Positions 13,222 through 62,142 of a stretch of 64,000 bases of DNA are shown here, piece by piece. The translations under genes were made by a program, and so were the position numbers. Source of the DNA: a virus (taxonomy: Duplodnaviria > Caudoviricetes); the IMG/VR virus record IMGVR_UViG_3300033074_000614, positions 9,679 to 73,678 of that record, one strand, 5' to 3'. The notes below the pieces were generated by a model, which made no database searches, was not told the DNA's origin, and was given only the letters and a program-made list of their open reading frames with translations. The number at the start of each line of letters is the position of its first letter. Position 1 is the first letter of the stretch.

Positions 13222-13231
13222 GGGGCTTTCA

Positions 13232-22126: not shown

Positions 22127-22143
22127 TTCTCTCTCTTCTCTCG

Positions 22144-24435: not shown

Positions 24436-24461
24436 CTTTGATTGCCGCGTGGAGACATGGA

Positions 24462-28560: not shown

Positions 28561-28931
28561 CCCGCGATGGAGAGGCCACTACCTAACCAGACTTGCGACG
28601 GGCGATAAGACGGTTCAGTCGCTTAACTTCTATTGGACGGGCGGCGGGTGGGAATGTGGCGAAGAAAAAATTACTCCAAGCGAATGGGGCAATTACGAAT
28701 ATTTTGATCACCACCTAATCGGAGACAAGTAATGGCGAAGAAGCAGAAGATCAGGGCGGTCAAGGCGTGGGCGCTTCCGTTGATGGACAAAATAGAAATA
28801 GGCGCGATATGGCCTAGCAAGAGCAGTGCTTGGGAGTACGAAAGAACTGGCGACCCAAGAGTGTACAGCAAGCGGGAACTGTTCAAACTTTTGGTCCCTG
28901 TCACAATCACCCCTCGCAAGAAAGGCGGAAG

Positions 28932-38577: not shown

Positions 38578-38586
38578 GGAACACCA

Positions 38587-39957: not shown

Positions 39958-40232
39958 CAGATAGCAGACACTGCAAACGATGCTCGCCCGATTCAAACGT
40001 ACAGCAGCAATTGTGCGGCAAGTGCGAGGCTGATGATCGTAATGCCCAAATGATCGCGGGGGCTTCAAGCCCGATCGGGTTGCGTGATTACTTCGCGGCG
40101 CATGCCACCGAAGAGGACTGTAAATACGCGGCTCAGATTTGGATGGAACAAAACAACGCTGAAACGTGCCAGCGACAGGTGGCGAGGTTCGCGCACGCCG
40201 ACGCCATGCTTGAAGCTAGAAAACTTACATGA
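39954..40232 (+). CDS. Inserted small protein (LRDYFAA...ADAML.AR family)
   Basis: Coupled at both ends; absent from A; paralog at 63460. Confidence 0.7.
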   Translation: MTDSRHCKRCSPDSNVQQQLCGKCEADDRNAQMIAGASSPIGLRDYFAAHATEEDCKYAAQIWMEQNNAETCQRQVARFAHADAMLEARKLT

Positions 40233-41134: not shown

Positions 41135-41184
41135 GTGTTCACAGATCGGTTGTTGACTGTTTCCACGCCACGTTCTATATCGGC

Positions 41185-42249
41185 GTGAAGGTAAACGCAA
41201 ATCTTCCGCTCGTGTTTTCTGCCGCTCCCGCAGTGGCCGTTGGTGAACCACGCGAAGAGAACGGCCAGCCCGTTCGCACCTTCAAGAAAGAAATCGTGCA
41301 GGCTGGTAAGTGGCGGCACCCCGCAGACGGTCAGCTTATCGACATTCCGCAGGCACGGCTCTCGCACTGGAACAGCCAGTTCCAAGCGATGAAGGCCAAC
41401 GGGATGAAGGTGTACGTCCCCGAAGATCACACCCGCAACCCGGACGCTAATCGCGGATGGGTTACTGACATGGAAGTCGTTGGCGACAAGCTCGTGGCGA
41501 CTATGGACCTGATCGGAGAGGACGCGATCAAGCTCGCAAGCCGTATCGACGTTTCAATCCAAGCGCGCGATCTTGTGGACGGCAAGGGCAACAGATACCC
41601 CGACGCGATCGAACACACCGCGCTAGTCGCAGACCCGGTTATCACCGGACTCAACAAATTCGTCATTCAGCTTTCAAGGGCCAAGACCCTCGGACTTTCA
41701 ATCGGAGGCAGTTCAATGGAATCACTCAAGAAGATCGCGGCATCCCTCGGTATCGAAGCCGGTGAAATGGACGAGGCCGCACTAGAAGCCGCGATTCTCG
41801 CCGCTTGTGGCAAGCTCAGGGCGGGAAACGAGGAGGCCGCGACTTCACTGTCTGCCGCTCAATCCGAACTCGCCACCCTGAGACTTTCAGCCAAGCCTGT
41901 CGATGTCGATCCTGACCTGCTCGAACACGCGGCGGGGAATATTTCCTCGCAGCTTGAAGTCCTCACCATGTCACGCCAGATCACGCCCGCGTTCCGCGAC
42001 AAGGCGAAGGTCGTTCTCTGTGGCGCGGATGCCACCAAACGCCCCATCGTAATGCTCAGCCGCAAGGCCGCAACCGCTGCCGGGTTCTCCGGCGCACTCG
42101 CTCAGCCGTTCATCGACCTGCTCAAAGAACTTCCTAAGCCCGAAGGCGATGGCACAACCACCACGCTCTCACGCGAGGGCGGACCCAAAGAAGGCGAAGT
42201 TGACCAGAAGCAAATCGACGCGGTTATTGAAAAGCACGTCGGACGCTGA
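41185..42249 (+). CDS. Mu gpI-like protease/scaffold (B)
   Basis: Paralog of 4671; internal GGAGG SD before ATG 41716. Confidence 0.85.
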   Translation: MKVNANLPLVFSAAPAVAVGEPREENGQPVRTFKKEIVQAGKWRHPADGQLIDIPQARLSHWNSQFQAMKANGMKVYVPEDHTRNPDANRGWVTDMEVVGDKLVATMDLIGEDAIKLASRIDVSIQARDLVDGKGNRYPDAIEHTALVADPVITGLNKFVIQLSRAKTLGLSIGGSSMESLKKIAASLGIEAGEMDEAALEAAILAACGKLRAGNEEAATSLSAAQSELATLRLSAKPVDVDPDLLEHAAGNISSQLEVLTMSRQITPAFRDKAKVVLCGADATKRPIVMLSRKAATAAGFSGALAQPFIDLLKELPKPEGDGTTTTLSREGGPKEGEVDQKQIDAVIEKHVGR

Positions 42250-42283
42250 TTCACCCACACGCACACCTCTCGGAGTTTGAAAA

Positions 42284-43327
42284 ATGATCAATCTTGCACC
42301 AGGTACCCCCGGCATCTCAAGTCAGTACACCGCAGGCTTCCGCAGCGTGTGGGGTTCTGCCAATGACAAGCAGTACAAGCCGGGGATGCACACCATCAAC
42401 GGCTCGCTTTCACGCGACAACACAAACACCGGCAACCTCGACTTCCTCCAAGCTGGTCTGCTCATGGGCAAGATCACTTCCACCGGCAAGTATGCCACCT
42501 CGATTCTCGGTCTGACCGGCACCGCATACGCATCGGGTACAACCCTGAACGTTGCGGCCTCTACCGCTGTCGAAATCGCACGCCGCATCGGAACCTCTGG
42601 CACATTCAAAGTCACAGGCCCACCGTCCGCCGCTGGCACCGTTCGCACCGCGACCGTGACGTTCTCGGCGGTCAACACCTCCACCGGCGACGTGACTATT
42701 ACCGCGCTTGGTGCCGATCAGGTTGAACGCATCCGATTCAACATCGCCTCGACTGGCGGCAACTTGCAGTTGAACGTTGCCAAGCCCGACGGAACTCGCG
42801 TTACCACGGCCAACGCCGCTTGGAACGCGACGGACGCGACTTACCTTGCCTCGATCAACTCCGCACTCGACACCGCAACTGGTGTCACTGGCGGCATCGT
42901 TGCAACTGCTATCTCTGCAACAGACACCGATCTTGGCATCACGCTCACCTACAGCGGCACCGGCTACGCGGGCCTGACACACGCTCGCGCGGAAGTGGTG
43001 GTTATCCCCACCTCCTCGACCGAAGCACTCTACGAGCCTGTCACAACCGCCGTGGCCCGCGCCCTTGTGGCCGGTTCACTGGTTCGCCCCACCGATGGCA
43101 GCGAAACCGCTCTCACCTTCATTGACGAAGGCGATCCAATCAAGGTCACTGACGCATTCGGCACCAGCATGGATGTGGACTTTGGCCCGCTCCCGATCGG
43201 CGGAATTGTGCTTGCAACCAACCTCATCAACTGGCCCGCAGATACGTCCACCCGCGCCGCGCTTCAGGCTGAACTCAACAGCACCAGCGGCGGTCGCTTC
43301 TCGTTTGTTGATCGTTACAACGCCTAA
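42284..43327 (+). CDS. Head decoration protein with inserted domain (B)
   Basis: Same length (347 aa) as 5782..6825 and highly similar. Confidence 0.75.
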   Translation: MINLAPGTPGISSQYTAGFRSVWGSANDKQYKPGMHTINGSLSRDNTNTGNLDFLQAGLLMGKITSTGKYATSILGLTGTAYASGTTLNVAASTAVEIARRIGTSGTFKVTGPPSAAGTVRTATVTFSAVNTSTGDVTITALGADQVERIRFNIASTGGNLQLNVAKPDGTRVTTANAAWNATDATYLASINSALDTATGVTGGIVATAISATDTDLGITLTYSGTGYAGLTHARAEVVVIPTSSTEALYEPVTTAVARALVAGSLVRPTDGSETALTFIDEGDPIKVTDAFGTSMDVDFGPLPIGGIVLATNLINWPADTSTRAALQAELNSTSGGRFSFVDRYNA

Positions 43328-43375
43328 TCGAAACGCACATAAGCGGCGAAGGCCGCGACACCCGGAGTCTTGCAC

Positions 43376-44461
43376 ATGACAGTCAATTACAACACGCTGA
43401 TCGGCACACCCAAGCTGATGGCATCCATCAACAGTCCCGCGATTGGACTGCCCAAGGCATTCAACCCCGCGTTCTACACGCTTCGTACAGACTCCGACGA
43501 CCAGACCTTCAAATGGGAACAAACGCCCATTACGCAGACCACCGCCGCAGCCGTTTCGTTCGGCTCGCCCGCGATCCCCGCACCAAAGACGAACCTGAAT
43601 GAGCGCGATGGTCGCTGCATTCACTTGTTCGAGTCGATCACACACAACGGCCAGACCCTTCTCGACCTTCAAAGCGACAACCAAGAGACTCGCACCCGCG
43701 CGTCGGACGACTTCGTTCGTCAGGCTGCAAACTTCGGTATGCGGTTCGACAACACTGAAATCGCATCGCTGGCCTCCGCTCTTTCACAGGGCATCATCTA
43801 CCTCGGCAGCAACGGTCAGATTCAGCTTACATCATCCGGCGCGGCTCGCACAATCGACCTCGGCGTTCCCGCCGCGAACAAGAACCAGTGCGGCGGCAAG
43901 ATCACCGCATCATGGGCAACAGCCGGAACCGACGTCCTCGGCAATATCTACGCGATTCTCAAGGCGATGGCACAGGCCGGTCGTCCTTGCGAGAAGATCA
44001 TGTACGGCTCAGACGTGCCCGGCTACCTCCGTGGCAACACCGCGATCAGCGGCATGATGAGCAAGAGTTCATTCCTTGCTGATCAGCTTGCACAAGGCCG
44101 GTTGCCCAACGGGTTCGGCGATCCTTCAAATCAGGTAGTTTGGGAACCGATCTGGAACTCATTCTTTGTTGACTCAGGCGGCACAACCCGCGAGTTCTTC
44201 GGCGGCGATGCAGTTCTCTTCCTGCCCAAAGTCGATCGCACTTGGTACACGATGGTTGACGGTGCGGCGGTCATTCCTTCCAAGGTTGGCATCGCATCGA
44301 ATCCAGCAGAGGCCGCAAGCAGCTTGCAGAAGGTTCGCGGTAAGTTCAGCTATGCACGCATCAACGACAATCCTGTGAGCGTGGACCAGTTCTGCGGCCA
44401 CTCGTTCCTTCCTGTGTTCCTTGATCCCTCAGCGTTCTACATCGCTGACGTTGTTCCTTAA
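43376..44461 (+). CDS. Major capsid protein, lambda gpE-like (B)
   Basis: Close paralog of 6877..7962. Confidence 0.85.
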   Translation: MTVNYNTLIGTPKLMASINSPAIGLPKAFNPAFYTLRTDSDDQTFKWEQTPITQTTAAAVSFGSPAIPAPKTNLNERDGRCIHLFESITHNGQTLLDLQSDNQETRTRASDDFVRQAANFGMRFDNTEIASLASALSQGIIYLGSNGQIQLTSSGAARTIDLGVPAANKNQCGGKITASWATAGTDVLGNIYAILKAMAQAGRPCEKIMYGSDVPGYLRGNTAISGMMSKSSFLADQLAQGRLPNGFGDPSNQVVWEPIWNSFFVDSGGTTREFFGGDAVLFLPKVDRTWYTMVDGAAVIPSKVGIASNPAEAASSLQKVRGKFSYARINDNPVSVDQFCGHSFLPVFLDPSAFYIADVVP

Positions 44462-44496
44462 TTCAAATTCTCCCGGCTAGGGCCGGAAACTACTCC

Positions 44497-44534
44497 GTGC
44501 CCCGCTGGACCACTCGGCGGGGTACTTGTTTTTT
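44497..44534 (+). terminator. Rho-independent terminator after the capsid gene (B)
   Basis: GTGCCCCGCTGG-ACCAC-TCGGCGGGGTAC then TTGTTTTTT. Confidence 0.75.
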
Positions 44535-44966
44535 ATGGGCACATACGCGAGCCAATCCGACCTCACGACACGCTTCGGCACGACGAACATCGGTAAGTGG
44601 AGTCAGACCGACCCCACTACTGATAGTGACACTATCGACACGGCGGCGGTTGCAGAGGCTATCGCGGATGCAGAGGCACGCATCAACGACCGCATGAGGC
44701 CGTCAAGGTATCAGTTGCCGCTCACGGCGAACAGTTCCGGCGCGCTGCAGGCGGTCAAGCGTTGGACCTGCAACTACGCGGCGGCGTGGCTCTACCAGTC
44801 TCGCCCCGCTGGTATCACCACTGATACGGCTTCGATGATCGAATCGCTCGAACTCAAGACCAACGACGAAATTGACGCGGTAGTTTCCGGCAGCACGCAC
44901 CTTGACTGCCCGCTCAAAACTGGCGGCTATGGGTATACGGCGACATCGCCAACGGTGGTTATGTGA
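44535..44966 (+). CDS. Mu gp36-like head-tail adaptor (B)
   Basis: Paralog of 8034. Confidence 0.85.
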   Translation: MGTYASQSDLTTRFGTTNIGKWSQTDPTTDSDTIDTAAVAEAIADAEARINDRMRPSRYQLPLTANSSGALQAVKRWTCNYAAAWLYQSRPAGITTDTASMIESLELKTNDEIDAVVSGSTHLDCPLKTGGYGYTATSPTVVM

Positions 44967-45715
44967 ACACAACCGTAACCGTGGACATATCGAAAGCCTT
45001 GCGAGTCCCGCAGGGGTTGAAGGCGGCGGTTGAGGCGCAGCTCGACAATAACGGGCCGGGTCCATTCACTGACATGAAAACCCAGTGGGTCCACATCTAC
45101 CAGAACGCGGCACTTCGGCACTTTGACCGGGCGTCGCGCGGCGGGTCAGACTGGGCACCGTTGACACTCGCCACGATTCTCAGCCGTAAGGCGGCGAAGG
45201 GGCCGGGTACGCGCGGACAGCAGCGGGCGGCGGCTAGGAGCCAACTTCGCGGCGTACGCGATATGAAGGCGGCACGGGCGTCGGGCGCAACGCTCAGCAT
45301 CCGCAACCGTCAGCAGGTCAAGAACAACATCAAGGCGGCGTTGCACAACGAACGCAGCGCGGCAAAGCGCACCACGCTCAAGAACAAGATCGCGGCACTC
45401 AGCGGACACGCAGGCGTTGTCATCCTCAAAGACACCGGCGCACTTCGCAACGCGCTTGTCATCGGGCAGGCGGGATCGGTCATTACTCGCGGGCGGGCGT
45501 CGATCACGTTTGGGTTCGCACCCGTCCCACACGTTGGCGGCAGCGCGACACTCGCGGAAATCGCGGGCTGGCACAACACCGGCGCGGGCCACAATCCAAA
45601 ACGCACGATCTTGATTGCCCCCGATGCCTCGACCGTTCGCCAGATGGTGGCGGCTACGCAGGCCGCGACCGACAAGGTTATTGCGAACATCCGCAGACAG
45701 AACGGGGGTAGCTAA
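44963..45715 (+). CDS. Virion morphogenesis protein, gpG-like (B)
   Basis: WAPLT.ATIL...ILKDTGAL. Confidence 0.75.
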   Translation: MNTTVTVDISKALRVPQGLKAAVEAQLDNNGPGPFTDMKTQWVHIYQNAALRHFDRASRGGSDWAPLTLATILSRKAAKGPGTRGQQRAAARSQLRGVRDMKAARASGATLSIRNRQQVKNNIKAALHNERSAAKRTTLKNKIAALSGHAGVVILKDTGALRNALVIGQAGSVITRGRASITFGFAPVPHVGGSATLAEIAGWHNTGAGHNPKRTILIAPDASTVRQMVAATQAATDKVIANIRRQNGGS

Positions 45716-46221
45716 TGGCCGACCCGTTCACGCAAACCGAACTCGGTCTTTGGATCGAACTTGAGGCGTACACGCCTTTCACTTCGCTGGTCCGCACCGG
45801 TAACCGGATCAAGTTTTGTGTTGAGGCCAAGCCCGATCCTGAGAAGGACCAGATTGCCGACAACGACATGCCGGAAGTGTCGATCCAGCCAACGACAAGT
45901 TCGTGGGAGGCGCGCGGCTCGAATTGCACGATCTGGCAACAGACGTATGCGATCACGATTCGCACCGGCGATAAGCGCACGTCCCGAAATTACAACCCGC
46001 TCAAGTGGGCGATCCTCCGCGCGGTCGTCAAGACCTTCGCAAAGAACCTCGACACGCTCACCACAACTTGGGGTATGCCAACCGGGACCAAGCTCATGCG
46101 AGTTTGGCCGGGGACTTCCAACGACGGCAAGGCATCGGGCGAGGGAATCCGCGAGGGTTGGGCGTGCCTCTGCCTCGTAAACGTCAGTTTCGCAATGGAT
46201 GAATCGGTCGTAACGGCCTGA
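45715..46221 (+). CDS. Putative tail terminator (B)
   Basis: Paralog of 9214. Confidence 0.6.
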   Translation: MADPFTQTELGLWIELEAYTPFTSLVRTGNRIKFCVEAKPDPEKDQIADNDMPEVSIQPTTSSWEARGSNCTIWQQTYAITIRTGDKRTSRNYNPLKWAILRAVVKTFAKNLDTLTTTWGMPTGTKLMRVWPGTSNDGKASGEGIREGWACLCLVNVSFAMDESVVTA

Positions 46222-46231
46222 AGGGTTTTAT

Positions 46232-47089
46232 ATGGCAGTTCACAGCGGCAAACTCGGAGCGATCAGCTACAACGGCTCAGCCGTTTCAACTATCGGCGAA
46301 TGGAACTGGGCCGAGGAAAGCGCGAACACCGAGGCCACGGCCTCGAACACCGTCGGCGCGCCCATTCAGATTGCGGGCATGAAGGACTCGAAGGGGTCGT
46401 TTGCCGCCTTCGGCAAGAACCCGCCTTTGTTCCCCGGCGTGGCAAGTGCGACACTCATAGGTGACACCGGCTTCGGCAAGATCAGCGGGTCGGCGTTCAT
46501 CACCGCCGCAAAACTCTCGATCGACCTCGAATCGTTCAAGCCCCTCGAATGGTCGGTTGAGTTTGAGGGCAGCGGCGCGATTACCCCGCTAAGCACCAGC
46601 AGCGTTACCGACTCAAGCACGCCCGCGATGTTCTCGCCGCAGGGCGGGAAGATTCGCTGGCAGCCGATTGTGTCCGGCACGCTCGGCACGATGGCGGACC
46701 TGCCCACACCCCGCAACATCGAACTTGGCTATTCGATCCCGTTGGATGGCTACACGCACACCGATGGATGGCGGCGCAAGCTCTACGCCACCCCGCTCAA
46801 GTTGAGTATCACGACCAATCTGTACGACGACGCATTCGCCGCGATCGACGCGGCTGGCACCCAGTATCAGGTTGGCACCACCGGCATCCTGCACGCTTAC
46901 ATCAACGCGAGCGAGTATTACACGATCAAGTACGCAACGGTTCGCAGCGTCGGCACAACGGTTGACGCGAAGACCGGCAAACTCACGGTTCAATCAATCA
47001 CTTGGGACTGGTCAGCGTGGGGCCTGCTCACGGCTGGCTACGACCGTGGCACGCTTATCTCGCCAGACGCGACGGTGCTTTGGAGTTAA
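46232..47089 (+). CDS. Major tail tube protein (B)
   Basis: 285 aa like A; shared GGK.RWQPIVSGTLGT.ADLPT. Confidence 0.7.
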   Translation: MAVHSGKLGAISYNGSAVSTIGEWNWAEESANTEATASNTVGAPIQIAGMKDSKGSFAAFGKNPPLFPGVASATLIGDTGFGKISGSAFITAAKLSIDLESFKPLEWSVEFEGSGAITPLSTSSVTDSSTPAMFSPQGGKIRWQPIVSGTLGTMADLPTPRNIELGYSIPLDGYTHTDGWRRKLYATPLKLSITTNLYDDAFAAIDAAGTQYQVGTTGILHAYINASEYYTIKYATVRSVGTTVDAKTGKLTVQSITWDWSAWGLLTAGYDRGTLISPDATVLWS

Positions 47090-47100
47090 GTATGAAGCTA

Positions 47101-47430
47101 TCAACTAAACATCTTGTGGATAACGCCTGTGAAAAGCAGGACCAGAACCGCAATCACGATCGGTATCAGAGACGCCAACAGGATTCCAAAGGCGATCGTC
47201 CAGATTGTCGGTATTCGCTTCTCGATTCGATCAAGTCTGTCTTCGATGGTTACCGCCGCAACCGGCAAATGTTCGCTTTCGGGCGCGACACAAAGGTCCT
47301 CCGAACCAACCACCAAGTGCCCCTCGTTAATCGTGCGGATTTTGGCGTTCTCGTAGTTCTTTGCCTCAACCAATTGGGTGTATTTCTTTCCAGTCTTCCG
47401 GTCCGCACACTCAATTTCATGCGTTGGCAT
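47101..47430 (-). CDS. Antisense single-TM moron at the tail-chaperone locus (B)
   Basis: AAGGAG SD; C-terminal TM helix; candidate own promoter TTGGAC-N17-CAGAAT; 17-bp palindrome at 47524..47540. Confidence 0.7.
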   Translation of the reverse strand: MPTHEIECADRKTGKKYTQLVEAKNYENAKIRTINEGHLVVGSEDLCVAPESEHLPVAAVTIEDRLDRIEKRIPTIWTIAFGILLASLIPIVIAVLVLLFTGVIHKMFS

Positions 47431-47555
47431 CTCGTAACTCCTTTAGGTTCATCTGGATTCTGCCAGATATTCCGCGAACGTCCAAGGCGTAATTGGGAAA
47501 TTCCTCTCAAAAACACACACACTAGCGCGAATTTCGCGCTTATCGGAGCATAAAA

Positions 47556-48593
47556 GTGGCCGATGGCGATGCCAAAATCACGATTTCGGGGGACGCGACA
47601 AGCCTTAAGTCGGCCTCAAATGAAGCGAATGCAGCCCTAAACAAGGTCGCCAGCACTGCGAAAAGTGCCGGTGCGGCCGGTGAGAAGATGGCTGGATGGG
47701 GGGAGATCGCCAAGAAGGCAGCGGGCGCAGTCGGACTTGGTGGTTTAGCCGAAGCCGCCGAAAAAGCAGTGTTTGCTTTCAAAGGTCTCGCCTCCGCGAC
47801 GGGGCCGGTTGGTGTAGCGATACTCGCACTTGTAACCGCTCTGGGATATTTGTACACAAAACTTCGGGCGGCGTCTGAAGAGACAAAGAAATTAGAAGAA
47901 ACCAGCGATGCCGCGGCTAAAAAGGTTGACAATCTTAAGAAGGCCCTGCTCGGTCTGGAATTGACCGGAACGGCGAAAGCCATCGAGGAACTGCGCGAAG
48001 CCGAAAAGGCCAACCTTGATTCTCTTATTGCGAAGTTGCAGCAATACGGATGGACTACTGAGGCTATTGAAAAGGTGAGGCTTGTCAGACTTAAGGAAAG
48101 CGCCGACACCCTTGAACAGATTTTTGCAAGACAGAAAAAGATTGCAGAGGAACAAAAAAAAGAATCGGAGTCGGCCGGGCGATTCGACCTGATTAAGAAA
48201 ATAGAAATCATGAAGGCCCAGCTTCGCGGTGACGAAGCAAAGGCGCGGGCCGAAGACGAATTTAAGCTCTTAGAAATTCAAAGACAAATTCTCAATTCTC
48301 TCTCGGAAGACAGGAAGAAGCTGCTCCGCGAAGAATATGAACTCCAACGAAAACTTAATGCGGAAGCGGCCGAGGATCGCCAAAAGGAACGCGAGAAAGA
48401 AGCCGCAGAAAATAAAAAGGAATTAGACGCGGCGACCGCCAAAGAACTCGAAGCCCGCAAGAAAGCCGCGCGTGAACTTGTCGAGTACGAGGCCAAACTC
48501 CGCGAGGACATGCTCGGCAGCTTGCACGGCGACTTAGGCGGCATCGAGTATTCAGGGCGCGGTTCGGTCACAAACTGGGGGTCTGAACGCTAA
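47556..48593 (+). CDS. Short tape-measure-like protein (B, 345 aa)
   Basis: MADG.AKITISGD, hydrophobic helix, coiled-coil; C-terminal part alignable with A. Confidence 0.65.
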   Translation: MADGDAKITISGDATSLKSASNEANAALNKVASTAKSAGAAGEKMAGWGEIAKKAAGAVGLGGLAEAAEKAVFAFKGLASATGPVGVAILALVTALGYLYTKLRAASEETKKLEETSDAAAKKVDNLKKALLGLELTGTAKAIEELREAEKANLDSLIAKLQQYGWTTEAIEKVRLVRLKESADTLEQIFARQKKIAEEQKKESESAGRFDLIKKIEIMKAQLRGDEAKARAEDEFKLLEIQRQILNSLSEDRKKLLREEYELQRKLNAEAAEDRQKEREKEAAENKKELDAATAKELEARKKAARELVEYEAKLREDMLGSLHGDLGGIEYSGRGSVTNWGSER

Positions 48594-49453
48594 TGGCGGG
48601 ACCGACTGTCATCATGGATGCCTTGACGCCCGCTCCGATTCTGGACAATGCGGGCGCGGCTCTCACGCCGATTGATTGGATTGTCGAGGGCGTTCCCGCT
48701 GGCGACGACCCGATGAAGGTACCGGGCGTGCCCATGCGTGGCAGTCCGATCACGATGTTTGGAACGGTGTTCACCTGTGACCGGCTCGACACGCCGACGC
48801 GCATTCGCGCGGATGCCTACCGCATTCGCAGCTATTTCTCGACCGATGGCCGGTGGGAAGTTCTCACGCCACCCCGTCGCGGCGAGGACGTTCGCAACTT
48901 TGAACTGGGCTATCGCAAGGTAAAGATCGAAGCACCTTCGTTTATCAAGACGACCGAGACTCGCACAGAACCGGGCGGGGAAGTCACGCACAAGGTATGG
49001 AAGCGGCAGGACATCCCGCGCACGCTCGAATGGCGCACGCTCTCAATCGACGTGACAATTGAAGTCGCAAACGATCAACAGATTTTGGCGGCGATTACGG
49101 CCACCGAATTACAGGAAGGCCACATCCATCGCTTTCCGTACAACCCAAACAAGTTGTGGCTCATGCTCACCTGTGGCATCAAGCGGCGCGGCGACAAGAT
49201 GGATATTCGGTATACGTGGGAGTCAGATCCCGGCAACGGGCCAATGGAAATTCCAGACCTGACCGGCGTTCTGTTCACCGACAAGATACAGCCGCCCGCG
49301 CGCTCTCCGTTTCACGTCTACACGGTCATGCCGCCCGAAGCTGGCGACGCTGACAAGAAGCCGCGAATCTGGACCGCGAACCTGTTCCCTCAAACCAACA
49401 ACCCGTTCTACACGCCAAACGGCTACGTCGGGCTACCGGGGAACCCAATCTAA
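48593..49453 (+). CDS. Putative distal tail/hub protein (B)
   Basis: Paralog of 11727. Confidence 0.5.
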   Translation: MAGPTVIMDALTPAPILDNAGAALTPIDWIVEGVPAGDDPMKVPGVPMRGSPITMFGTVFTCDRLDTPTRIRADAYRIRSYFSTDGRWEVLTPPRRGEDVRNFELGYRKVKIEAPSFIKTTETRTEPGGEVTHKVWKRQDIPRTLEWRTLSIDVTIEVANDQQILAAITATELQEGHIHRFPYNPNKLWLMLTCGIKRRGDKMDIRYTWESDPGNGPMEIPDLTGVLFTDKIQPPARSPFHVYTVMPPEAGDADKKPRIWTANLFPQTNNPFYTPNGYVGLPGNPI

Positions 49454-49767
49454 TGTCGAAGCAAGCCGACGAACTTGTGGTGAAGCAACCAGCCGACGCC
49501 GTGAAAGAGGCGCACGTTGTAAGCGTGCAGAACTCGCCGGGGCCGCTCACTGGTCTGCGGTGGAGTGTTCGCCTGACCTATTGGAGCGGGCACCAGCAAG
49601 TAGAAACCAACGTCAAAAACAGCCGCGTCTTTCCACCTGAATACTCCGACCTCGACATGCACGGCGACGGGCCGGGCGGACACGTTGCGATCGGCTACGC
49701 GGGCGATTCGCTTGTGTATTTCATCCAGTGCTACCCGGTGTTAACCGACTGCGAGGGCCAACCTTGA
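49453..49767 (+). CDS. Small tail-tip protein (B)
   Basis: Paralog of 12596. Confidence 0.6.
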   Translation: MSKQADELVVKQPADAVKEAHVVSVQNSPGPLTGLRWSVRLTYWSGHQQVETNVKNSRVFPPEYSDLDMHGDGPGGHVAIGYAGDSLVYFIQCYPVLTDCEGQP

Positions 49768-50075
49768 ACCTCCAAACCCAATACATCCTCTCGACAACTG
49801 CAGGCTTGTACGTCAAGTGGCGTGCGCCGAAGTCTGGCATGTGCCGGATACAGGTCCGCTCGCCGCACACCTGGCCTTCTCTGCTCGTGCTGGACGTGAA
49901 AACAAGTGTTGTCGGAATGGGACCGGCATATCCCGCAGGTTTCACCTCGCTGCAATTCTCGGCAGCCGGAATCTGCAATCCGTTTTACGTCCACGAGGGC
50001 ATGGAAATTTGGGTCTTAGTCAACACATTGAGCGGGACATCCGCAGACATTGAAACAACTCCGTCGATCGAATAA
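49764..50075 (+). CDS. Small tail-tip protein (B)
   Basis: TTG start; paralog of 12910. Confidence 0.6.
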   Translation: MNLQTQYILSTTAGLYVKWRAPKSGMCRIQVRSPHTWPSLLVLDVKTSVVGMGPAYPAGFTSLQFSAAGICNPFYVHEGMEIWVLVNTLSGTSADIETTPSIE

Positions 50076-50087
50076 GGAATCTGTGTC

Positions 50088-51308
50088 ATGGCAAATAAAT
50101 TCTACATCGGGGCGAATCCGGCCAACTTCTTAGACACCGTGAACTGGTCGCTCACTCACGGCGGCGCGGGCGGGCAAACACTCTCCAATGGAGACACCGC
50201 GTACGTCGATTACAGCGCGTCCAACATCGACGGCTATGACGCCTCGGCTGTCACGCTCGCGGCGTTGTATATCACCAAGGGCTACGGGCGTCCAGTCGGC
50301 AGCGCGAACCCAGTCTTCGGACTTCGCATCGGCGGAACCAGCGGCAGCGGCAGTACGCCACTCAAGATCAACGCCACAAACGTCTACATCGAAACCGACT
50401 GTATCGACACGATCATCCTGTACGGCACGTTCACCAACGTCTACGCGCGGCTGCTCGCTCCCGGCAGCAACCTTTATCTTCAGGGCGGCGGACCGACCAA
50501 CATCGAGGCTGGCACCAACGGCACGATCACGGTTGAGAACGATGTTCCGGTATCTCGCATCGAAACGCTTGGTGCGGCGATCAAACTTGGAACATACGCA
50601 ACCCTTCCACCCGTGCTTGAAGTCAACTGCTCAAAGGGCGCAAAGATCGAATCCAATCGCCGCGTTACTCACGGCGAGGTCAATGGACACCTCTGGATGC
50701 GCGAAGGCGGGGCACTCGCAAGCGTCAATCAGGTCGAAAAGATCGGCTTTGACGCGGCGTCAACGGGTGGCAACCTTCGCCTGACGATCCAGAAGCCTGA
50801 CGGGACGTTTGCGACTACCGCAAACATCGCGTGGAACGCCACCGACGCAACGTATTTGGCGGCGATTAACTCCGCGTTGGACACATCCAGCGGCGTTGTC
50901 GGCGGGATCGTGGCGACTGCCACGGCTGGCGTCGATCCTGATTTGGGATTTACCCTCACGTATTCGGGAACGGGCTACGCGGGCTTGTCTTGGTCCAAGG
51001 CGGCGGTTCACACCTACCCGACGACTTCGACGCTGGCGACTTACACGCCTGTCCGTGTGGCGGGTTCTCGGATCGTTATTCCAAGCGGCGGCGTTCTCCA
51101 GTACGACGGGTACAGCGACATTGGCGCAACTTCCGCTGACATCATCCGCACTATGAGCGGCGGATTGTTCGATGCCTCTCGCGTCATTACAGCCGTGGCG
51201 TTGAAATCCCAGATTATCTCGATGGGTGCTTACCGCCTATCAGGAAGCATTACGCAGACCACTACTCCGCGACAGCCAAGCGATGTTATGGGCGGCGTTG
51301 GTGCCTGA
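50088..51308 (+). CDS. Beta-solenoid-like tail protein carrying a decoration-protein domain (B)
   Basis: Paralog of 13232 with a ~113-aa insertion at ~50724-51060. Confidence 0.6.
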   Translation: MANKFYIGANPANFLDTVNWSLTHGGAGGQTLSNGDTAYVDYSASNIDGYDASAVTLAALYITKGYGRPVGSANPVFGLRIGGTSGSGSTPLKINATNVYIETDCIDTIILYGTFTNVYARLLAPGSNLYLQGGGPTNIEAGTNGTITVENDVPVSRIETLGAAIKLGTYATLPPVLEVNCSKGAKIESNRRVTHGEVNGHLWMREGGALASVNQVEKIGFDAASTGGNLRLTIQKPDGTFATTANIAWNATDATYLAAINSALDTSSGVVGGIVATATAGVDPDLGFTLTYSGTGYAGLSWSKAAVHTYPTTSTLATYTPVRVAGSRIVIPSGGVLQYDGYSDIGATSADIIRTMSGGLFDASRVITAVALKSQIISMGAYRLSGSITQTTTPRQPSDVMGGVGA

Positions 51309-52492
51309 TGTCACTTCTCCGCAAAGGTCGGGCACTGGTCAAGGTCGGGCGTGCGCTCGCCAAGGCCACCGCCGCGTGTATCGCGCGGTGTTGCGGCGCG
51401 TCCACCCTCTACTACACACTCAACCTCTGCCACACGGCAAACGCACCCCCCGAAGTCCCGCGCCGAATTGCAGTCCCCTTGCCGTTCACCTGCGGCGGAT
51501 GTCCCCTGTCATCGCGTCGAATCGTCATCTATCGCGGGTACTGCTACGAGGCCGCGCCCAACTTTGACGGCGCGTGTACCCCATTGCCATGCGCGGGCGG
51601 CGACTGCGAATCGCCCCCAGTGCCCCGTAGTGCCGTTGGGAACGATCCGATTGTGAACCCCGGCGAGTTGCAGTGCAAGCCGCTGGACGCCACCTGCTCG
51701 ACCGTGCCTTGCGTACCAGAGGAACCGGGGTGCTGCTCAGAGTCCGACCGGCGAGACTGCCCCGATGGCTCGTTCGTGGTCTGCAACCGGCCTAAGCGGT
51801 TCCGCGTGGTGCGCTTTGGCGAACACACCCTCAAGTCTTGGTGTTCCGACAGTCCAGCCGATTGCCGAACATGGGCGATGGTCGAGGACGTCAAGATCAA
51901 ATGGAACTTCTGGCACGAATACCAGTGCGAGGAAACGGGCGGGGATCGCACGCAAGCGACTTGCCAAGCGGCGGGCGGGTCTATCAGCGTGTCCGGCGCG
52001 ATCAACTGGATTCAGGGCAATGTTCCTTCCCCGCTCAATGGCGAGTGGCGCGCGACTTGCCAAGGGTTCGAGCGTGGCGGCGACGTTTCTAGTGCAAGTG
52101 TCCTGCTCTACGCAATGGGCCAAGTTCGACCCTGCGGCGGCGGGTATCTTGGCGATGAGTGTGTCACCGATGAGTTCGACAGTTGCGCGGATGGCAGGCG
52201 ATTCCATCGGCGGACAGTTTCAGGGTGTGAGACGGGCGGCTCGCTCAGCGAGTCCAGCTATTCCGATTGCAATTACGCAATGTCGCGGCTGAAGTACCGC
52301 ACGTTTGACTTTCCTACGCGATGCACCGGCCAGCCTACCACCGTTCAAGACTTCGCGGACGATGAGCAGTACGTATTCGTGACCGCCTGCCCCGGCGATC
52401 CGCCGCAAGCACCCTTACCGGATGAAGCGCGTGCGTTTATGCCGTTGCCGAAACGCACACCCCCCCCCCAATCGACGGGAGAAATGTTCTAG
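51308..52492 (+). CDS. Cys-rich tail-tip/receptor-binding candidate (B)
   Basis: About 29 Cys by eye; N-terminus LVKVG.ALAKATAACIARCC shared with 14101. Confidence 0.5.
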   Translation: MSLLRKGRALVKVGRALAKATAACIARCCGASTLYYTLNLCHTANAPPEVPRRIAVPLPFTCGGCPLSSRRIVIYRGYCYEAAPNFDGACTPLPCAGGDCESPPVPRSAVGNDPIVNPGELQCKPLDATCSTVPCVPEEPGCCSESDRRDCPDGSFVVCNRPKRFRVVRFGEHTLKSWCSDSPADCRTWAMVEDVKIKWNFWHEYQCEETGGDRTQATCQAAGGSISVSGAINWIQGNVPSPLNGEWRATCQGFERGGDVSSASVLLYAMGQVRPCGGGYLGDECVTDEFDSCADGRRFHRRTVSGCETGGSLSESSYSDCNYAMSRLKYRTFDFPTRCTGQPTTVQDFADDEQYVFVTACPGDPPQAPLPDEARAFMPLPKRTPPPQSTGEMF

Positions 52493-52906: not shown

Positions 52907-53740
52907 ATGAAATATGCACCCACCTTGCGCGGCTTTGTCGTAGGCGTTGCCCTGTTCTGCATGGTGGGTGTGACGTGGGGCTGCTTTGGCAGGCCCGACA
53001 TTGGCCGCATCCGCATCGACCCCGAAACCGGCAGCGAACTGGTCGAGAACTTCAAAGATAAGCCGTTCAGCGTTAAAGAGTTGGTCGATGCTGGAATGTC
53101 AGAGGATGCCGCTCGCAAGTTGCTTGGGCCTCCAAAACCCGGCTCGCCCGACTTCGTTGGTCCAATCGACCCGTCCACCGACCCCACCTTCAAAGAGGGC
53201 AAGGCGGCGGCAAAGCAGGACTTCAACCGCACGGTCTCTTGGGCAACCTCAATCGCCCTCTGGATTTTCATCCCCCTAGCGATCATCGTCGCGCTCGCCT
53301 CGTTCGTGGTGCCGTGGATTCCAACCAAAGCGGCGATCTATTGCGCGGCGTCAGCGTGTGCCGTGGTGGGCATCCGCTATGCACTCTTGACGTTTGGCAC
53401 CATTGCGGTCGATTGGGCGGTGTATATCAGCGCGGCTTCTGCGATCGTCGTGGTGCTTGTGGTTGGCCTGCCGATGGCGATTGCTTGGGTGAAGCGGAAT
53501 ACGTGGAAGCGTGCTGTCACTCTCGCGGCGGAAGGCGAACACATCGACGGCGCGGTTGCGCTCGCGGCATCGGTGGACCCTGTCATTGACAAGCAAAGGT
53601 CGGACGTAAAGGTCTGGCTCGACACGGTTCACAATGAACCACCCGCCGATCTTCCCCTGAACGACAAACTGTGGGACAAGTGGCGAGAGGCCCGCATGCA
53701 GCTTGTGAAGCTCGGCGTGCTGAAACCGGGGGATAAATGA
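52907..53740 (+). CDS. Membrane protein with lipoprotein-like signal and three TM helices
   Basis: Hydrophobic N-terminus ending TWG-C; three later hydrophobic segments. Confidence 0.65.
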   Translation: MKYAPTLRGFVVGVALFCMVGVTWGCFGRPDIGRIRIDPETGSELVENFKDKPFSVKELVDAGMSEDAARKLLGPPKPGSPDFVGPIDPSTDPTFKEGKAAAKQDFNRTVSWATSIALWIFIPLAIIVALASFVVPWIPTKAAIYCAASACAVVGIRYALLTFGTIAVDWAVYISAASAIVVVLVVGLPMAIAWVKRNTWKRAVTLAAEGEHIDGAVALAASVDPVIDKQRSDVKVWLDTVHNEPPADLPLNDKLWDKWREARMQLVKLGVLKPGDK

Positions 53741-54369
53741 GCACTTGGTCAGTCACACAAGGCGATTGCCTCGAACTGCTGAAGTCGCTCCCTAGTGGCA
53801 GCGTGGATGCGGTGGTTACTGATCCGCCGTATGGGATTGGTTACGTGGCGTCTCGGTATCGTGGGGCCAAGTTCAGCGGCGTTATTCATGGCGACGACAG
53901 CCCATTCGATCCTTCGGCTCTGTTAAGCATCGGCGTTCCGACAATCATGTGGGGTGGGAACAACTTTGCAAACTCGCTTCCTCGCGGTGGGTGGCTCTGT
54001 TGGGATAAACGGTGCTGCGAGGAAGCGGATCGGATTCACGGAAGTCCATTTGAATTAGCGTGGGTTTCAGACTGCGCCAAGTTCAAGATGAAACGTCTAC
54101 AGCATTGCGGCGCGGTAAGCGCAGACAGAACCGCTCGCGTACACCCAACCCAAAAACCCATTGAACTTATGCGGTGGTGTTTGGATTTGCTTGGCATACC
54201 AGAAGGCGCAACCGTTCTCGATCCGTATTGCGGCTCAGGCACCACCGGAGTCGCGTGCGTTCAAACAGGCCGCAACTTCATCGGCTACGAAATCGACCCG
54301 AAGTACTGCGAGATTGCACGGCGGAGGATTGAGGCAGCGGTTCCACTATTCGCGGAGGTTGCACAATGA
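53737..54369 (+). CDS. DNA methyltransferase (DPPY, N6-A type)
   Basis: VTDPPYG, HPTQKP, VLDPYCGSGTT. Confidence 0.93.
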   Translation: MSTWSVTQGDCLELLKSLPSGSVDAVVTDPPYGIGYVASRYRGAKFSGVIHGDDSPFDPSALLSIGVPTIMWGGNNFANSLPRGGWLCWDKRCCEEADRIHGSPFELAWVSDCAKFKMKRLQHCGAVSADRTARVHPTQKPIELMRWCLDLLGIPEGATVLDPYCGSGTTGVACVQTGRNFIGYEIDPKYCEIARRRIEAAVPLFAEVAQ

Positions 54370-57844: not shown

Positions 57845-58084
57845 TCATGAAACGGGCGGCGGGTCGATAGGCTTTTCATCCACCGGCTTAGGCGGCATCG
57901 GCCCCAAGAACCCCATCTGCTCGCACACGCCGCGAACCAGTTCCTCCGCGAAATCTGGATTCTGCAAATCCGCCAACAGCAGGGGGTCCGGCGTTTCGCC
58001 CGGTGCCAAATTCTGCAACTTGTCCAGCTTCGCCAGAGTTTCCGCGACTTCCGGCTGACTCATCGGTTTCACTTTTTTCGCCAT
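57845..58084 (-). CDS. Leaderless hypothetical protein with its own promoter
   Basis: Minus strand TTGCAC-N18-TACATT, then 6 nt to the ATG. Confidence 0.6.
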   Translation of the reverse strand: MAKKVKPMSQPEVAETLAKLDKLQNLAPGETPDPLLLADLQNPDFAEELVRGVCEQMGFLGPMPPKPVDEKPIDPPPVS

Positions 58085-58204: not shown

Positions 58205-58221
58205 GTCAGGATTTGGCCGGA
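58205..58221. repeat. 17-bp direct repeat copy 1 (copy 2 at 58408..58424)
   Basis: GTCAGGATTTGGCCGGA, exact, 203 bp apart. Confidence 0.9.
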
Positions 58222-58250
58222 CAAAAGAAAAACCCCGGTTTGATCCGGGG
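58221..58250 (-). terminator. Rho-independent terminator
   Basis: Minus strand ACCCCGG-ATCAAA-CCGGGGT-TTTCTTTTGT. Confidence 0.85.
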
Positions 58251-58284
58251 TCTTCCGCGTTCAATCCGAACGGCGTCTCAACAA

Positions 58285-58345
58285 TAGCGTGGGCTTGGAC
58301 TCGAACCAAGCGACTGCCCGCCCTCTGCCACTGAGTTACCACGCA
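58285..58345 (-). ncRNA. tRNA-like RNA lacking an anticodon arm
   Basis: GCGTGG/CCACGC acceptor; TA-ACTC-AGTGGCA-GAG D arm; GCTTGG-TTCGAGT-CCAAGC T arm; only ~11 nt between D and T arms; no CCA. Confidence 0.7.
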
Positions 58346-58397
58346 TGGTGGTGAGCATAGGGGGCATTGCTGCAATTCCTACCCCACCGTGAGCCAC

Positions 58398-58406
58398 ATT
58401 ATACCA
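58398..58406 (-). promoter_or_regulatory. Extended -10 promoter for the tRNA-like RNA
   Basis: Minus strand TG-G-TATAAT. Confidence 0.7.
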
Positions 58407-58408
58407 CG

Positions 58409-58696
58409 TCAGGATTTGGCCGGAGCGGGGCGAGGTGGTGGATTAGCCGGCTGGCGCGCGTGGTTCAATCTGACCAGTGAAAACGTATTCGTTTCGAGCT
58501 TGGTCAGTTCCCGGCTGTAGTACACCAATCCATGCGGGTAGTCCGGATGCTTCGCCGCTTCGCTGGTTTCGAGTCGGCATAGATACCCGTCGCGCGGGAT
58601 GGTAAACCCCGGATGCGTCGGGCGCAACGTGGCGGCGTACTGGAACACTGGTCCGGTGTGTTCATCAAGCCAAACTATCGGGCGGTATTCGCTCAT
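58409..58696 (-). CDS. DarA C-terminal-domain-like small protein
   Basis: Y...LRP...G...P..G....HG.V.Y.R.LT..E...F.L pattern recognised from memory. Confidence 0.5.
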   Translation of the reverse strand: MSEYRPIVWLDEHTGPVFQYAATLRPTHPGFTIPRDGYLCRLETSEAAKHPDYPHGLVYYSRELTKLETNTFSLVRLNHARQPANPPPRPAPAKS

Positions 58697-60079: not shown

Positions 60080-61495
60080 GTGGTGCCAAGGGAGCTTTTG
60101 ATGCCAGATTGGACAATTACCGTTCGGCTATCGGACGGATGCGTGAAAATTGACTTGCAATTGCCGCAGGAACTTGCTAAGAACGGGATTATGGAATCAA
60201 TCCAACCGGCGCAAGTGGCGGACACGCCGCCAGTTACGTTGCCATTTCCATCTACCGACCAGTCCGAACTCGCACGCGATACCGATGCGTGGGGGGCTTA
60301 CTTGCGCGGGATTGGCCGGAAAGCCTCGACGATCGCCGCGTATCGCAAGACAGTGGGCGAGGCGGCGGCAGCTAAGGGGTGGACGCGGTTGTCGCAGGTG
60401 TCTCTCGACGCCGTGAGCGCGTATCTGTGCGAGCGGCGGGAGCGGCTTGGGTGGACCGGATCGACGTTTAACCGGAACATGGCGGCGTTTACCAACCTCA
60501 CCCGGTGGGCCAAGAAGACGCGGCGGACTGCAGAGAACGTGCTGGAGGACGTAGACCACGCCAAAGACTCCCACGGGGCCGGGGTGGGGCCGCTATCGCT
60601 ACTGCAGGTCGAGAGGCTAATGAGCTACACAACGACCCGGCAGGCCCTAGACAAGCGTTCTAGGACGAACCGCGTGCTTTATTGGTATTGGTTGATACTC
60701 GCCGGGATGAGGTTCAGCGAGCCTGCAGCGTTCAAGTGGAAGAATCTTCTGCTATCAGAGGAAATCCCGCTGTTCAGTTGGGAAGGGGCGATGCAGAAAA
60801 ACGGCAAGCGGTGCGAAATCGCCATTCACCCGGCACTTGTGCCAATGATCCTCGCCCACCGCGAAACCGTACCCCATGAGCCAAACGACCCCGTATTCCC
60901 CGGCACGCCCGCCCGCGAGACATTCCGAGCCGACTGCAGAGCTGCAGGTATTCCAGCCAAGGATTCGCGGGGTAGGCCCCTTAGTTGTCATTCGGCGCGC
61001 AAATTTTTCAGGTCGCACCTGGCCGAATTGGGTGCGTCTGGCGAGGTTATTGACTACCTAATGCGGCACGCGCGGGGCGTTTCTGACCGATACAACGTCA
61101 TTTCGCCGGTCGCGCAAGTGGCGGTGCTGTCAATGGTTAAGATAAATATTCGCGGAATCGTGGAAGAAAGTGTTGCAAATGGGGGAGAAATCCCGAATAA
61201 TGTATCTACCACCGAGCAGAAAGAAAGCATGCATACGATTTCCTATAACCCAGCTTTGACGACCGGCGAGGCATGCAAGTCTTCTGACGGTGGTACGTTC
61301 GGCGACAAATCTAACTCGCCGGTCCTTAAAACTGGGTTGGAAGAATCAGGCGACGAAGTTTCGACCAGCGCAAAGTCTCTGCCGCGCTTTGACCTGCGCG
61401 GCATACAAGCCTCCGATGGCATGAAGACTGCCGCCGCCGCGCTCTTGCGAGCCGCCGCTGACTTGCTCGACGCCTCGCGGGGGGTGTCAAAGTGA
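60080..61495 (+). CDS. int: Tyrosine recombinase/integrase (start uncertain)
   Basis: GMRFSE, HSARK, LMRH and DRY catalytic residues; N-terminal SAM-like domain; long C-terminal extension. Confidence 0.9.
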   Translation: MVPRELLMPDWTITVRLSDGCVKIDLQLPQELAKNGIMESIQPAQVADTPPVTLPFPSTDQSELARDTDAWGAYLRGIGRKASTIAAYRKTVGEAAAAKGWTRLSQVSLDAVSAYLCERRERLGWTGSTFNRNMAAFTNLTRWAKKTRRTAENVLEDVDHAKDSHGAGVGPLSLLQVERLMSYTTTRQALDKRSRTNRVLYWYWLILAGMRFSEPAAFKWKNLLLSEEIPLFSWEGAMQKNGKRCEIAIHPALVPMILAHRETVPHEPNDPVFPGTPARETFRADCRAAGIPAKDSRGRPLSCHSARKFFRSHLAELGASGEVIDYLMRHARGVSDRYNVISPVAQVAVLSMVKINIRGIVEESVANGGEIPNNVSTTEQKESMHTISYNPALTTGEACKSSDGGTFGDKSNSPVLKTGLEESGDEVSTSAKSLPRFDLRGIQASDGMKTAAAALLRAAADLLDASRGVSK

Positions 61496-62142
61496 CTACC
61501 TACCGCGTTGAACAAGGTGACTGCCTCGAATTGCTCAAGAGCCTTCCCGCTGGCAGCGTGGACGCCGTTATCACCGATCCGCCGTATGGAATCGCGCGAG
61601 TTTGGAAGGGTGGATCGGGAAGCGGATGGGGCAAGGCACGCGAACAGACCGCCGATCGCAATGCGTGGGATGCCACAGCCCCCGACCTTTCGGCGTTTCT
61701 CGCCCTTGACGTTCCGATGGCTGTTTGGGGCGGCAACTACTTCGACCTGCCCATATCACGCGGCTGGCTTGTGTGGAACAAGCCCGAAAGGAACTTCTCG
61801 CTTTCAGAGGCCGAGATTGCTTGGACAAATCAGGACGCGCCCATCCGCGTGTGTGATTGTCATCGCTCCGATTCGGGTCGGATACATCCAACGCAAAAGC
61901 CGCTGCAGCTCATGCGGTGGACTCTCGACAAAATGAATATTCCGGTTGGTGCAACCGTTCTCGATCCCTATTGCGGTTCAGGAACTACGGGGGTCGCTTG
62001 CGTTGAAATGGGAATCAACTTCATCGGCTTCGAGCTAGACCCCGACTACTGCACCATCGCCCGCCGTCGCATCGCCGAGGCTGTCCCGCTGTGGACGCCA
62101 GCACCAACACCCGCGCCAATTCAAGGGGAGATGTTCGCATGA
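61492..62142 (+). CDS. DNA methyltransferase (DPPY, N6-A type)
   Basis: ITDPPYG, HPTQKP, VLDPYCGSGTT; paralog of 53737. Confidence 0.93.
   Translation: MTTYRVEQGDCLELLKSLPAGSVDAVITDPPYGIARVWKGGSGSGWGKAREQTADRNAWDATAPDLSAFLALDVPMAVWGGNYFDLPISRGWLVWNKPERNFSLSEAEIAWTNQDAPIRVCDCHRSDSGRIHPTQKPLQLMRWTLDKMNIPVGATVLDPYCGSGTTGVACVEMGINFIGFELDPDYCTIARRRIAEAVPLWTPAPTPAPIQGEMFA

Follow-up and report, generated by a model that had tools for sequence, protein, structure and literature searches.

A putative stand-alone gene for a tRNA-shaped RNA without an anticodon arm in a temperate phage, and its fit to a class of such elements in other phages

A small cassette located on the minus strand at 58205-58424 was analyzed in a 64,000-nt stretch of temperate phage DNA (hereafter the window, to which all coordinates refer), corresponding to positions 9,679 to 73,678 of the 73.7-kb IMG/VR virus record IMGVR_UViG_3300033074_000614 (Caudoviricetes). 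Its parts follow one another on the minus strand as a 17-mer, an extended -10 promoter, a leader hairpin, a tRNA-like fold, a small hairpin, a terminator, and a second copy of the 17-mer. The cassette is placed in a leftward operon of small ORFans, which diverges from a tyrosine integrase gene; the last gene before it is an ORFan gene for 95 aa (58409-58696, minus strand) that is called by public gene callers, and an ORFan gene for 79 aa (57845-58084, minus strand) begins about 120 nt beyond the second 17-mer. Judged from its sequence, the element is a tRNA-shaped RNA gene that has no anticodon arm and cannot decode.

The tRNA-like body (61 nt, 58285-58345, minus strand) comprises a 6-bp acceptor stem formed by 58344-58339 with 58292-58287 (GCGUGG/CCACGC), U8 at 58338 and A9 at 58337, a D arm at 58336-58322 with a stem of 3 bp plus an A.G and the loop AGTGGCA, and a T arm at 58311-58293 with a 6-bp stem (GCTTGG/CCAAGC) and the loop TTCGAGT. 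The anticodon and variable arms are replaced at 58322-58312 by a linker of 11-12 nt, or by a 3-bp mini-hairpin with a 5-nt loop; no canonical anticodon stem-loop with a 7-nt loop is present, only 11-12 nt lying between the D and T stems. The conserved nucleotides A14, G18G19, A21, T54 T55 C56 R57 A58, and U8 are all present, a T standing at position 8 of the class alignment. The two helices are of 6 and 6 bp rather than a 7-bp acceptor stem and a 5-bp T stem, with the total of 12 preserved. In this 6/6 register the discriminator is U58286, CCA is not encoded, and the acceptor end consists of G1-C72, C2-G71, G3-C70, and U73, an acceptor end of the bacterial glycine-tRNA type. The combination of U73, G1-C72, and C2-G71 is the bacterial glycine set, of which U73 and G71 are read by the toxin TacT (PMC9976931). 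Assignment of a parent isotype from the D arm was rejected, since an identical D arm occurs in many isotypes. When the 61 nt were folded alone, the four-way cloverleaf made up 75% of the ensemble. ARAGORN reported 0 tRNA genes in the record, even with relaxed settings, and Rfam gave no match at the gathering score, with no match to the tRNA model RF00005 at E<=10.

The extended -10 promoter (TGgTATAAT, 58398-58406, minus strand) has a poor -35 region, and the transcription start is expected near 58390-58395. The motif TGNTATAAT matched twice in 128 kb (both strands of the window) against 0.42 expected, and a two-hexamer promoter scan did not list the cassette promoter. The other copy of TGNTATAAT in the window, at 24302-24310 (plus strand) and about 75 nt upstream of an open reading frame (ORF) at 24384-25340, is likely a promoter as well. 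The leader, about 45 nt long, contains a hairpin (58350-58388, minus strand, -16.4 kcal/mol) that ends 4 nt before the tRNA-like body and has a z of -2.7 against local windows and of -0.45 against shuffles. A small hairpin of 5 bp (CGTTC-GGATT-GAACG, 58258-58272, minus strand) stands between the body and the intrinsic terminator (58222-58256, minus strand, z -3.2), the 12-bp stem of which (7 G-C pairs, 6-nt loop) spans 58256-58227 and is followed by a T run in a T-rich tail. With a predicted promoter and terminator of its own around an insert between two operon genes, the cassette has the organization of a moron, and because both are private to it, the RNA itself is likely the product.

Much of this anatomy had been proposed in an earlier sequence-only reading. 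The extended -10 promoter, the leader hairpin, the small hairpin, and the strong terminator were all found where that reading had put them, and its expectation that no canonical tRNA call would be obtained was borne out by ARAGORN and Rfam. Its 61-nt tRNA-like fold with a gap of about 11 nt was confirmed too, but the word textbook overstates the acceptor arm, whose stem has 6 bp, and the D arm, whose stem has 3 bp plus an A.G; the T stem has 6 bp.

The architecture was searched for in other genomes with a pattern derived from the D and T loops of this element (TCAGTGGNAGAG, 8-20 nt, GGTTCGANTCC, i.e., D loop, short gap, and T loop). Normal tRNAs are excluded by the pattern, their gap being counted as 26-27 nt from the standard tRNA numbering; the acceptor stem and most of the T stem are not part of it, and by design it selects copies with perfect D and T loops. 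At least 115 viral loci, with at least 74 distinct elements, were matched. Among the matches listed, to which the counts of class members given below also refer, 6-7 of the 7 acceptor pairs are formed in 60 of the 74 distinct elements, with very different sequences, and the T stem is a perfect 5-bp stem (5/5) in 66 of the 74. In alignment A1, 92% of the cells of the tRNA-like structure are paired, compared with 39-52% when the partners were slid; all 7 acceptor pairs show double-sided change, and the observed values were reached in 0/500 shuffles. ARAGORN called a tRNA at only 1 of the 115 listed loci, and 8 of 12 members tested passed the gathering score of the Rfam tRNA model, spanning the whole model with the arm deleted.

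Single pairs and families were also compared. The homologues L100 and L117 differ by two fully compensatory changes in the T stem; what they share is confined to the element and the next 40 nt or so, with unrelated flanks. L035 and L089 differ by a compensatory change in the acceptor stem. In a gut phage family, the stems are preserved through wobble and compensatory changes, and linker lengths range from 7 to 15 nt. Tetraloop-capped short stems often make up the longer linkers. The view of the sequence-only reading that such an element is not the outcome of simple decay gains from this recurrence: since many phages that are not related share the design without an anticodon arm, its stems covarying and its homologues differing by compensatory changes, simple decay is unlikely as a general explanation. 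A literature search covering open papers yielded no description of phage tRNA-like genes lacking an anticodon arm; many similar genes thus far not found described in print appear to be carried by other uncultured phages.

L100 (2933-3120) and L117 (4170-4280) each show an encoded ACCA end, helices of 7 and 6 bp (13 in total), and then a conserved hairpin, and this unit forms a conserved island of about 100 bp in otherwise unrelated flanks; 13 bp is also the helix length of tRNA-Sec.

A covariance model (R1) was built from 66 class members with the present element excluded. The element scored 47.2 bits (E 5e-15), and the next best match in the record 11 bits; the score of the element is inflated, the class having been collected with a pattern taken from the loops of this same element. 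Independent of the pattern, the stems of the element fall in register with the class model; its sixth T-stem pair is modelled by R1 as an inserted pair and is common to L088, L100, and L117. The second, weak R1 match lies at 22073-22127 (plus strand, 11.2 bits, E 0.15) and has a good T arm (GCGGG/TTCAATT/CCTGC) and the 3' strand of an acceptor stem, a poor 5' half, and flanking ORFs without family matches. It resembles the 3' part of a tRNA gene and could be the core of an attachment site.

When the same pattern was applied to 596 Gb of prokaryote genomes, 83 loci were obtained, mostly with poor acceptor pairing, several of them identical to viral ones; L136 and L137 are class elements in prophages of cultured bacteria. 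Another family, chromosomal in Chitinophagaceae and related bacteria (L120-L198), has a tRNA-type D arm, a linker starting with CAACAG, and a T arm, with no acceptor pairing in the tRNA register, and may belong to some other RNA as its tRNA-like module. A scan for gaps of 21-25 nt gave at least 115 loci with shortened or tetraloop-capped anticodon arms, a figure that, like the at least 115 loci for gaps of 8-20 nt, is a lower bound, so that the abundances of the two sets are not comparable. Because shortened arms are found there, the class shades into near-normal tRNAs. In many tRNA-like genes of the viral contigs concerned (L202-L316), the acceptor, D, and T arms are intact and the anticodon arm is shortened within the 21-25-nt gap; in some the arm is a 5-6-bp stem closed by a 2-4-nt loop, and to several ARAGORN assigns two-base 'anticodons'.

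Class members occur in three contexts, namely within tRNA arrays, between genes, and as stand-alone units like this cassette. Of the 115 loci listed, 27 are inside tRNA arrays, and therefore only a tRNA-sized product makes sense there. Members between genes often follow immediately on a strong hairpin, with a start codon 10-90 nt downstream. In L100 the order is an 11/12 sigma-70 promoter, at about 60 nt upstream of the element, a leader hairpin, the element, and a hairpin; L011 has a terminator 5 nt downstream of the element. A tRNA-sized, tRNA-shaped RNA freed by the tRNA-processing machinery would be the common denominator of these contexts.

What is observed at this locus comprises its anatomy, a promoter motif that is rare, a terminator, agreement with a covarying class of phage RNAs, and the inability to decode; transcription, all steps of processing, the stability of the RNA, and its role in trans are inferred. 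The reading preferred here, to which a probability of roughly 0.45 is given, is a stand-alone small-RNA moron placed after the stop codon of the 95-aa gene, whose tRNA body without an anticodon arm would act in trans; that it is a real non-decoding RNA with a tRNA body, matured by tRNA-processing enzymes, is probable. A precursor of about 165-170 nt would be transcribed, from a few bases past the extended -10 to the terminator. In this precursor, the 6-bp acceptor stem would stack on the 6-bp T stem to form a 12-bp helix with an elbow of D-loop/T-loop contacts. Such a stack and elbow are what bacterial RNase P measures, as far as follows from its known mode of recognition, and therefore the cut would be expected between U58345 and G58344 (U-1/G+1). 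The 3' trailer would be trimmed by host nucleases and CCA appended by the CCA-adding enzyme, leaving a stable RNA of about 60-64 nt with a tRNA elbow and acceptor end and no codon pairing. Through its shape, it would compete for or occupy a factor recognizing the elbow or the acceptor end of tRNA; such a factor could be an enzyme of processing or modification, or a toxin or defence enzyme directed at the acceptor end. Trans action is favoured because this copy has a private promoter and terminator.

Relatives of the locus were searched for in several ways. None was found by blastn of the cassette against 50,697 phage records, by searching viral contigs for an exact 32-mer that spans the linker and T arm, or by semi-specific patterns in genome and metagenome contigs, where the only metagenome match (L118) was an unrelated class member. 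No full-length parent was obtained in viral contigs with a pattern that kept these D and T arms and permitted a complete anticodon arm between them. The 95-aa upstream protein, the 79-aa downstream protein, and the integrase likewise led to no relatives in the collections searched, and no homologue of the 95-aa protein was found there.

Several points weigh against the preferred reading. No homologue of the element was found in the viral, metagenome, and genome collections searched, and consequently there is no covariation or conservation evidence of its own, while its score against R1 is inflated as described above. The free energy of the fold is no better than that of shuffles (z -0.7), and for this reason the case for it is made by the tRNA signature and by how exactly the stems are placed; within the full 196-nt transcript, other folds compete. 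The D stem contains an A.G, and position 1 is unpaired in a 7-bp register. The element is a weak tRNA look-alike, without the Rfam tRNA match that 8 of the 12 tested class members attain at the gathering score. In many class members, a hairpin immediately precedes the element and a gene immediately follows it, an arrangement suited to processing in cis. Glycyl-tRNA synthetase normally requires C35/C36, and charging of the element would be poor. In favour of the reading, an engineered tRNA-Leu lacking the anticodon arm stays chargeable (PMC9976931).

These positions of the class lead to the rival that survives best, although we regard it as somewhat unlikely: a cis-acting signal for processing and stabilization, in which RNase P would cut read-through operon transcripts at the 5' end of the fold, the upstream mRNA would be left ending in the leader hairpin and shielded from 3' exonucleases, and the tRNA-like piece would be a by-product. 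A strong hairpin or terminator (z<-1.5) lies directly upstream in 41% of class members, compared with 5% downstream, and this locus likewise has its upstream hairpin (z -2.7); the statistic comes largely from one gut phage family, so that its counts are not independent. L093 and L107 show the order of a large ORF read, by inspection alone, as the major capsid gene, then the hairpin, the element, and the next gene, and the element of the gut family stands 10-35 nt before genes that resemble small-terminase or HNH genes in their N-terminal sequence only. The t-elements, degenerate tRNAs without an anticodon arm, mark the ends of mRNAs for cutting by RNase P and RNase Z (PMC5499578, PMC1920247), and mRNA cleavage by bacterial RNase P is known (PMC11143913). 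The context in other phages fits an RNase P/Z processing signal about as well as a decoy. Mere punctuation would nevertheless have no need for a rare promoter of its own between the upstream stop codon and the hairpin, nor for a terminator right after the element, and the listed members inside tRNA arrays (27/115) have no mRNA to process.

Decay is to be weighed again for this copy in particular. It would be a recently inactivated phage tRNA gene, probably for tRNA-Gly, that lost its anticodon stem-loop in a single deletion of about 12 nt, with the promoter and terminator left from a tRNA moron that once worked and an RNA that is now functionless. The glycine-type acceptor end and the 7-nt D loop would suit such a parent, as would the imperfections of the element (the A.G in the D stem, the 6-bp acceptor stem, the missing Rfam tRNA match) and the lack of relatives, hence of any sign of conservation. 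The shortened anticodon arms in viral contigs form a continuum to near-normal length that could be a decay series, and the pattern search by design picks D and T loops that are still perfect. Yet nothing but the anticodon arm is lost here, promoter and terminator being intact along with the T loop and the GG of the D loop; the extra T-stem pair is also present in the covarying L100 and L117, and is therefore design and not damage; elsewhere the arm-less state is old enough to have gathered compensatory substitutions and linker-length variants; many members carry tetraloop-capped short stems in place of the arm rather than ragged deletions; and the full-length parent with the same arms was not found in viral contigs. 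On balance, this explanation is considered unlikely.

A more far-reaching form of the trans reading, in which the RNAs of the class are widespread, mature as tRNAs do, and serve in trans as decoys or competitors for host factors reading the tRNA elbow or acceptor end, this copy bears a glycine-type end (U73, G71) of the kind that TacT-type acetyltransferase toxins read, and the cassette travels as a self-contained unit inserting with a 17-bp duplication, is held to be improbable as a whole. A remnant of recombination at the DNA level, i.e., an attachment-site scar of the integrase or a captured piece of a host tRNA with the 17-mers as cores, is held to be very improbable: integrases often use tRNA genes as attachment sites, one is encoded 1.7 kb away, and an exact 17-bp direct repeat brackets the unit, but the tRNA-like body is separated from the repeats by 62 and 63 nt instead of containing them, an attachment core normally holds just the 3' part of a tRNA and both halves are present here, the 17-mer is not found elsewhere in the record, the layout from promoter to terminator is orderly, and the overlapping ORFs have no family matches.

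The repeat itself, TCCGGCCAAATCCTGAC, is exact in both copies, which are 203 bp apart (3 matches in 0/100 shuffles). The first copy (58408-58424, minus strand) contains the last four codons and the TGA (58409-58411) of the 95-aa ORF, and the second (58205-58221, minus strand) directly follows the terminator tail; the flanking 17-mers that duplicate the last codons of the upstream gene, as reported in the sequence-only reading, are therefore confirmed. The window has no other copy that is exact or nearly so, and the 17-mer is found nowhere else in the record. We estimate that two exact copies of a 17-mer would fall within a few hundred bases of each other about once per thousand stretches of that length. 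Because the insert extends from the base after the stop-codon repeat to the final base of the T tract of the terminator, a fair reading is that a complete unit was inserted with duplication of the junction. The further claim that the cassette is mobile or excisable fared less well: its sole evidence is the 17-mer, which allows mobility as a hypothesis, flanking direct repeats are not a feature of the class, among whose members this locus alone has them, no terminal inverted repeats are present at the cassette ends, and no empty site came to light, the flanking genes and the integrase having no relatives in the collections searched. A miniature inverted-repeat transposable element, an insertion sequence, or another transposable element was rejected, the direct repeat being present without inverted ends and with a single copy of the cassette in the record. 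Short collinear matches beyond the 17-mer were seen at spacings of 204 and 210; a larger ancient tandem duplication behind it was rejected, as the gapped alignment beyond the 17-mer was no better than those of shuffles.

The element was compared with known tRNA-like RNAs. mascRNA, the 3' module of MALAT1, is likewise about 61 nt long and tRNA-like, with a stunted anticodon arm. It is excised by RNase P and RNase Z and CCA-tailed, and the upstream RNA keeps a protective 3' structure, an arrangement that the cis reading above would share; mascRNA is eukaryotic, nuclear, and part of a long noncoding RNA, with no sequence relation to the element. The t-elements of plant mitochondrial mRNAs are likewise degenerate tRNA-like folds with acceptor and T arms; that of nad6 has no anticodon arm, and t-elements are recognized by RNase P and RNase Z (PMC1920247, PMC5499578). 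The structural definition of a t-element, a tRNA-like fold without an anticodon arm or a canonical D arm (PMC5499578), also describes the present element. The t-elements, however, are organellar, lie inside mRNA precursors, and are defined by mapped mRNA ends, whereas the cassette belongs to a phage, has its own promoter and terminator, and is known from sequence alone.

YrlA is circularly permuted, its T arm, closed acceptor hairpin, and D arm following one another inside a Ro-binding stem that takes the place of the anticodon arm, and rsr (Ro60) is adjacent; the element, in contrast, has the normal tRNA order and an open acceptor stem. The YrlA/Y RNAs (RF02553) are non-decoding, have a tRNA-like D arm, T arm, and acceptor-like stem, and occur also in phages; tRNA-modifying enzymes act on YrlA, and in M. 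smegmatis so do RNase P and the addition of CCA (PMC4201824). The arm orientation differs between YrlA and Yrn1 (PMC4201824). RF02553 gave no match at E<=10, and no TROVE domain was found in the 73.7-kb record (control genomes were positive); a YrlA/Y RNA was rejected for its wrong topology, the lack of an Rfam match, and the lack of Ro60. A tmRNA, which joins a tRNA-like domain to a tag reading frame and pseudoknots, was also rejected, none being found by ARAGORN or Rfam and the transcript being only about 170 nt.

Bacterial tRNA-Gly is resembled in G1-C72, C2-G71, G3-C70, and U73 (in the 6/6 register), the 7-nt D loop, and the T loop TTCGAGT, and differs in that the element has no anticodon arm, hence no C35/C36, has helices of 6/6 and not 7/5, and is missed by ARAGORN and RF00005. 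An engineered minimal tRNA-Leu, likewise built of acceptor, D, and T arms only, was made in the laboratory and carries leucine identity (A73); no natural gene of its type is known to us. Without anticodon and variable arms, it folds with D/T-loop contacts and is still aminoacylated (PMC9976931). Among phages, the CI RNA of P4, the C4 RNA of P1/P7, and the M3 RNA of phi80 are likewise small encoded RNAs matured by host RNase P (PMC5499578, PMC11143913). CI and C4 are trans regulators that work by base-pairing, and CI, C4, and M3 are hairpin-like with no equivalent of the T loop (PMC5499578), unlike the element; phi80 M3 RNA, described without a T loop (PMC5499578), was accordingly rejected as a relative. 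Like the morons of temperate phages, the cassette is a self-contained unit between two operon genes. Morons of the classic kind are protein-coding, and their definition does not call for a 17-bp flanking duplication.

If the RNA is made and stable, phages would encode a class of tRNA-shaped RNAs outside decoding, which would add a phage chapter of tRNA mimicry beside tmRNA, Y RNAs, t-elements, and mascRNA. The class would provide a handle on the dealings of phages with host toxins and defence enzymes acting on tRNA, and on the cutting and stabilizing of polycistronic phage RNAs. For annotation, it accounts for a group of tRNA calls that are 'missing' or 'pseudo'; the Rfam tRNA threshold is passed by some members that have no anticodon. 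It is also readily testable, the elements being short and the predicted RNase P site and CCA tail offering simple read-outs.

The tyrosine integrase gene (60080-61495, plus strand) lies 1.7 kb from the cassette and belongs to its context. The nearest protein clusters of the integrase are mostly from Verrucomicrobiota, which is only a lead to the host. ORFs overlapping the cassette have no PHROG matches, and a protein-coding reading of them was rejected on this ground. An independent Logan contig (L002, 5,328 bp) is 100% identical across the whole region, with like gene calls, and the cassette is therefore not a local assembly slip.

The record holds two related phage genomes in tandem, with about 65-75% identity over the structural genes; their structural modules are about 36.5 kb apart (351-15408 versus 37102-52492 of the window, 65-75% nucleotide identity). 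The cassette belongs to the second genome, and the first has no counterpart of the region. At the end of the record, a 231-bp stretch is 95% identical to record bases 28782-29012, and the Logan contig ends exactly where the sequence is common to both tandem genomes. Either a tandem prophage pair or a chimeric assembly could account for the double-genome record.

Two paralogous, full-length N6/N4 DNA methyltransferase genes (53737-54369 and 61492-62142, both plus strand, 51% amino-acid identity) flank a 7.1-kb accessory region that contains the cassette, the ORFan operon, and the integrase gene. The first genome has only about 440 bp compared with a 3.1-kb integrase-containing stretch of the second, and it carries a DNA stretch resembling one of the two methyltransferase genes.

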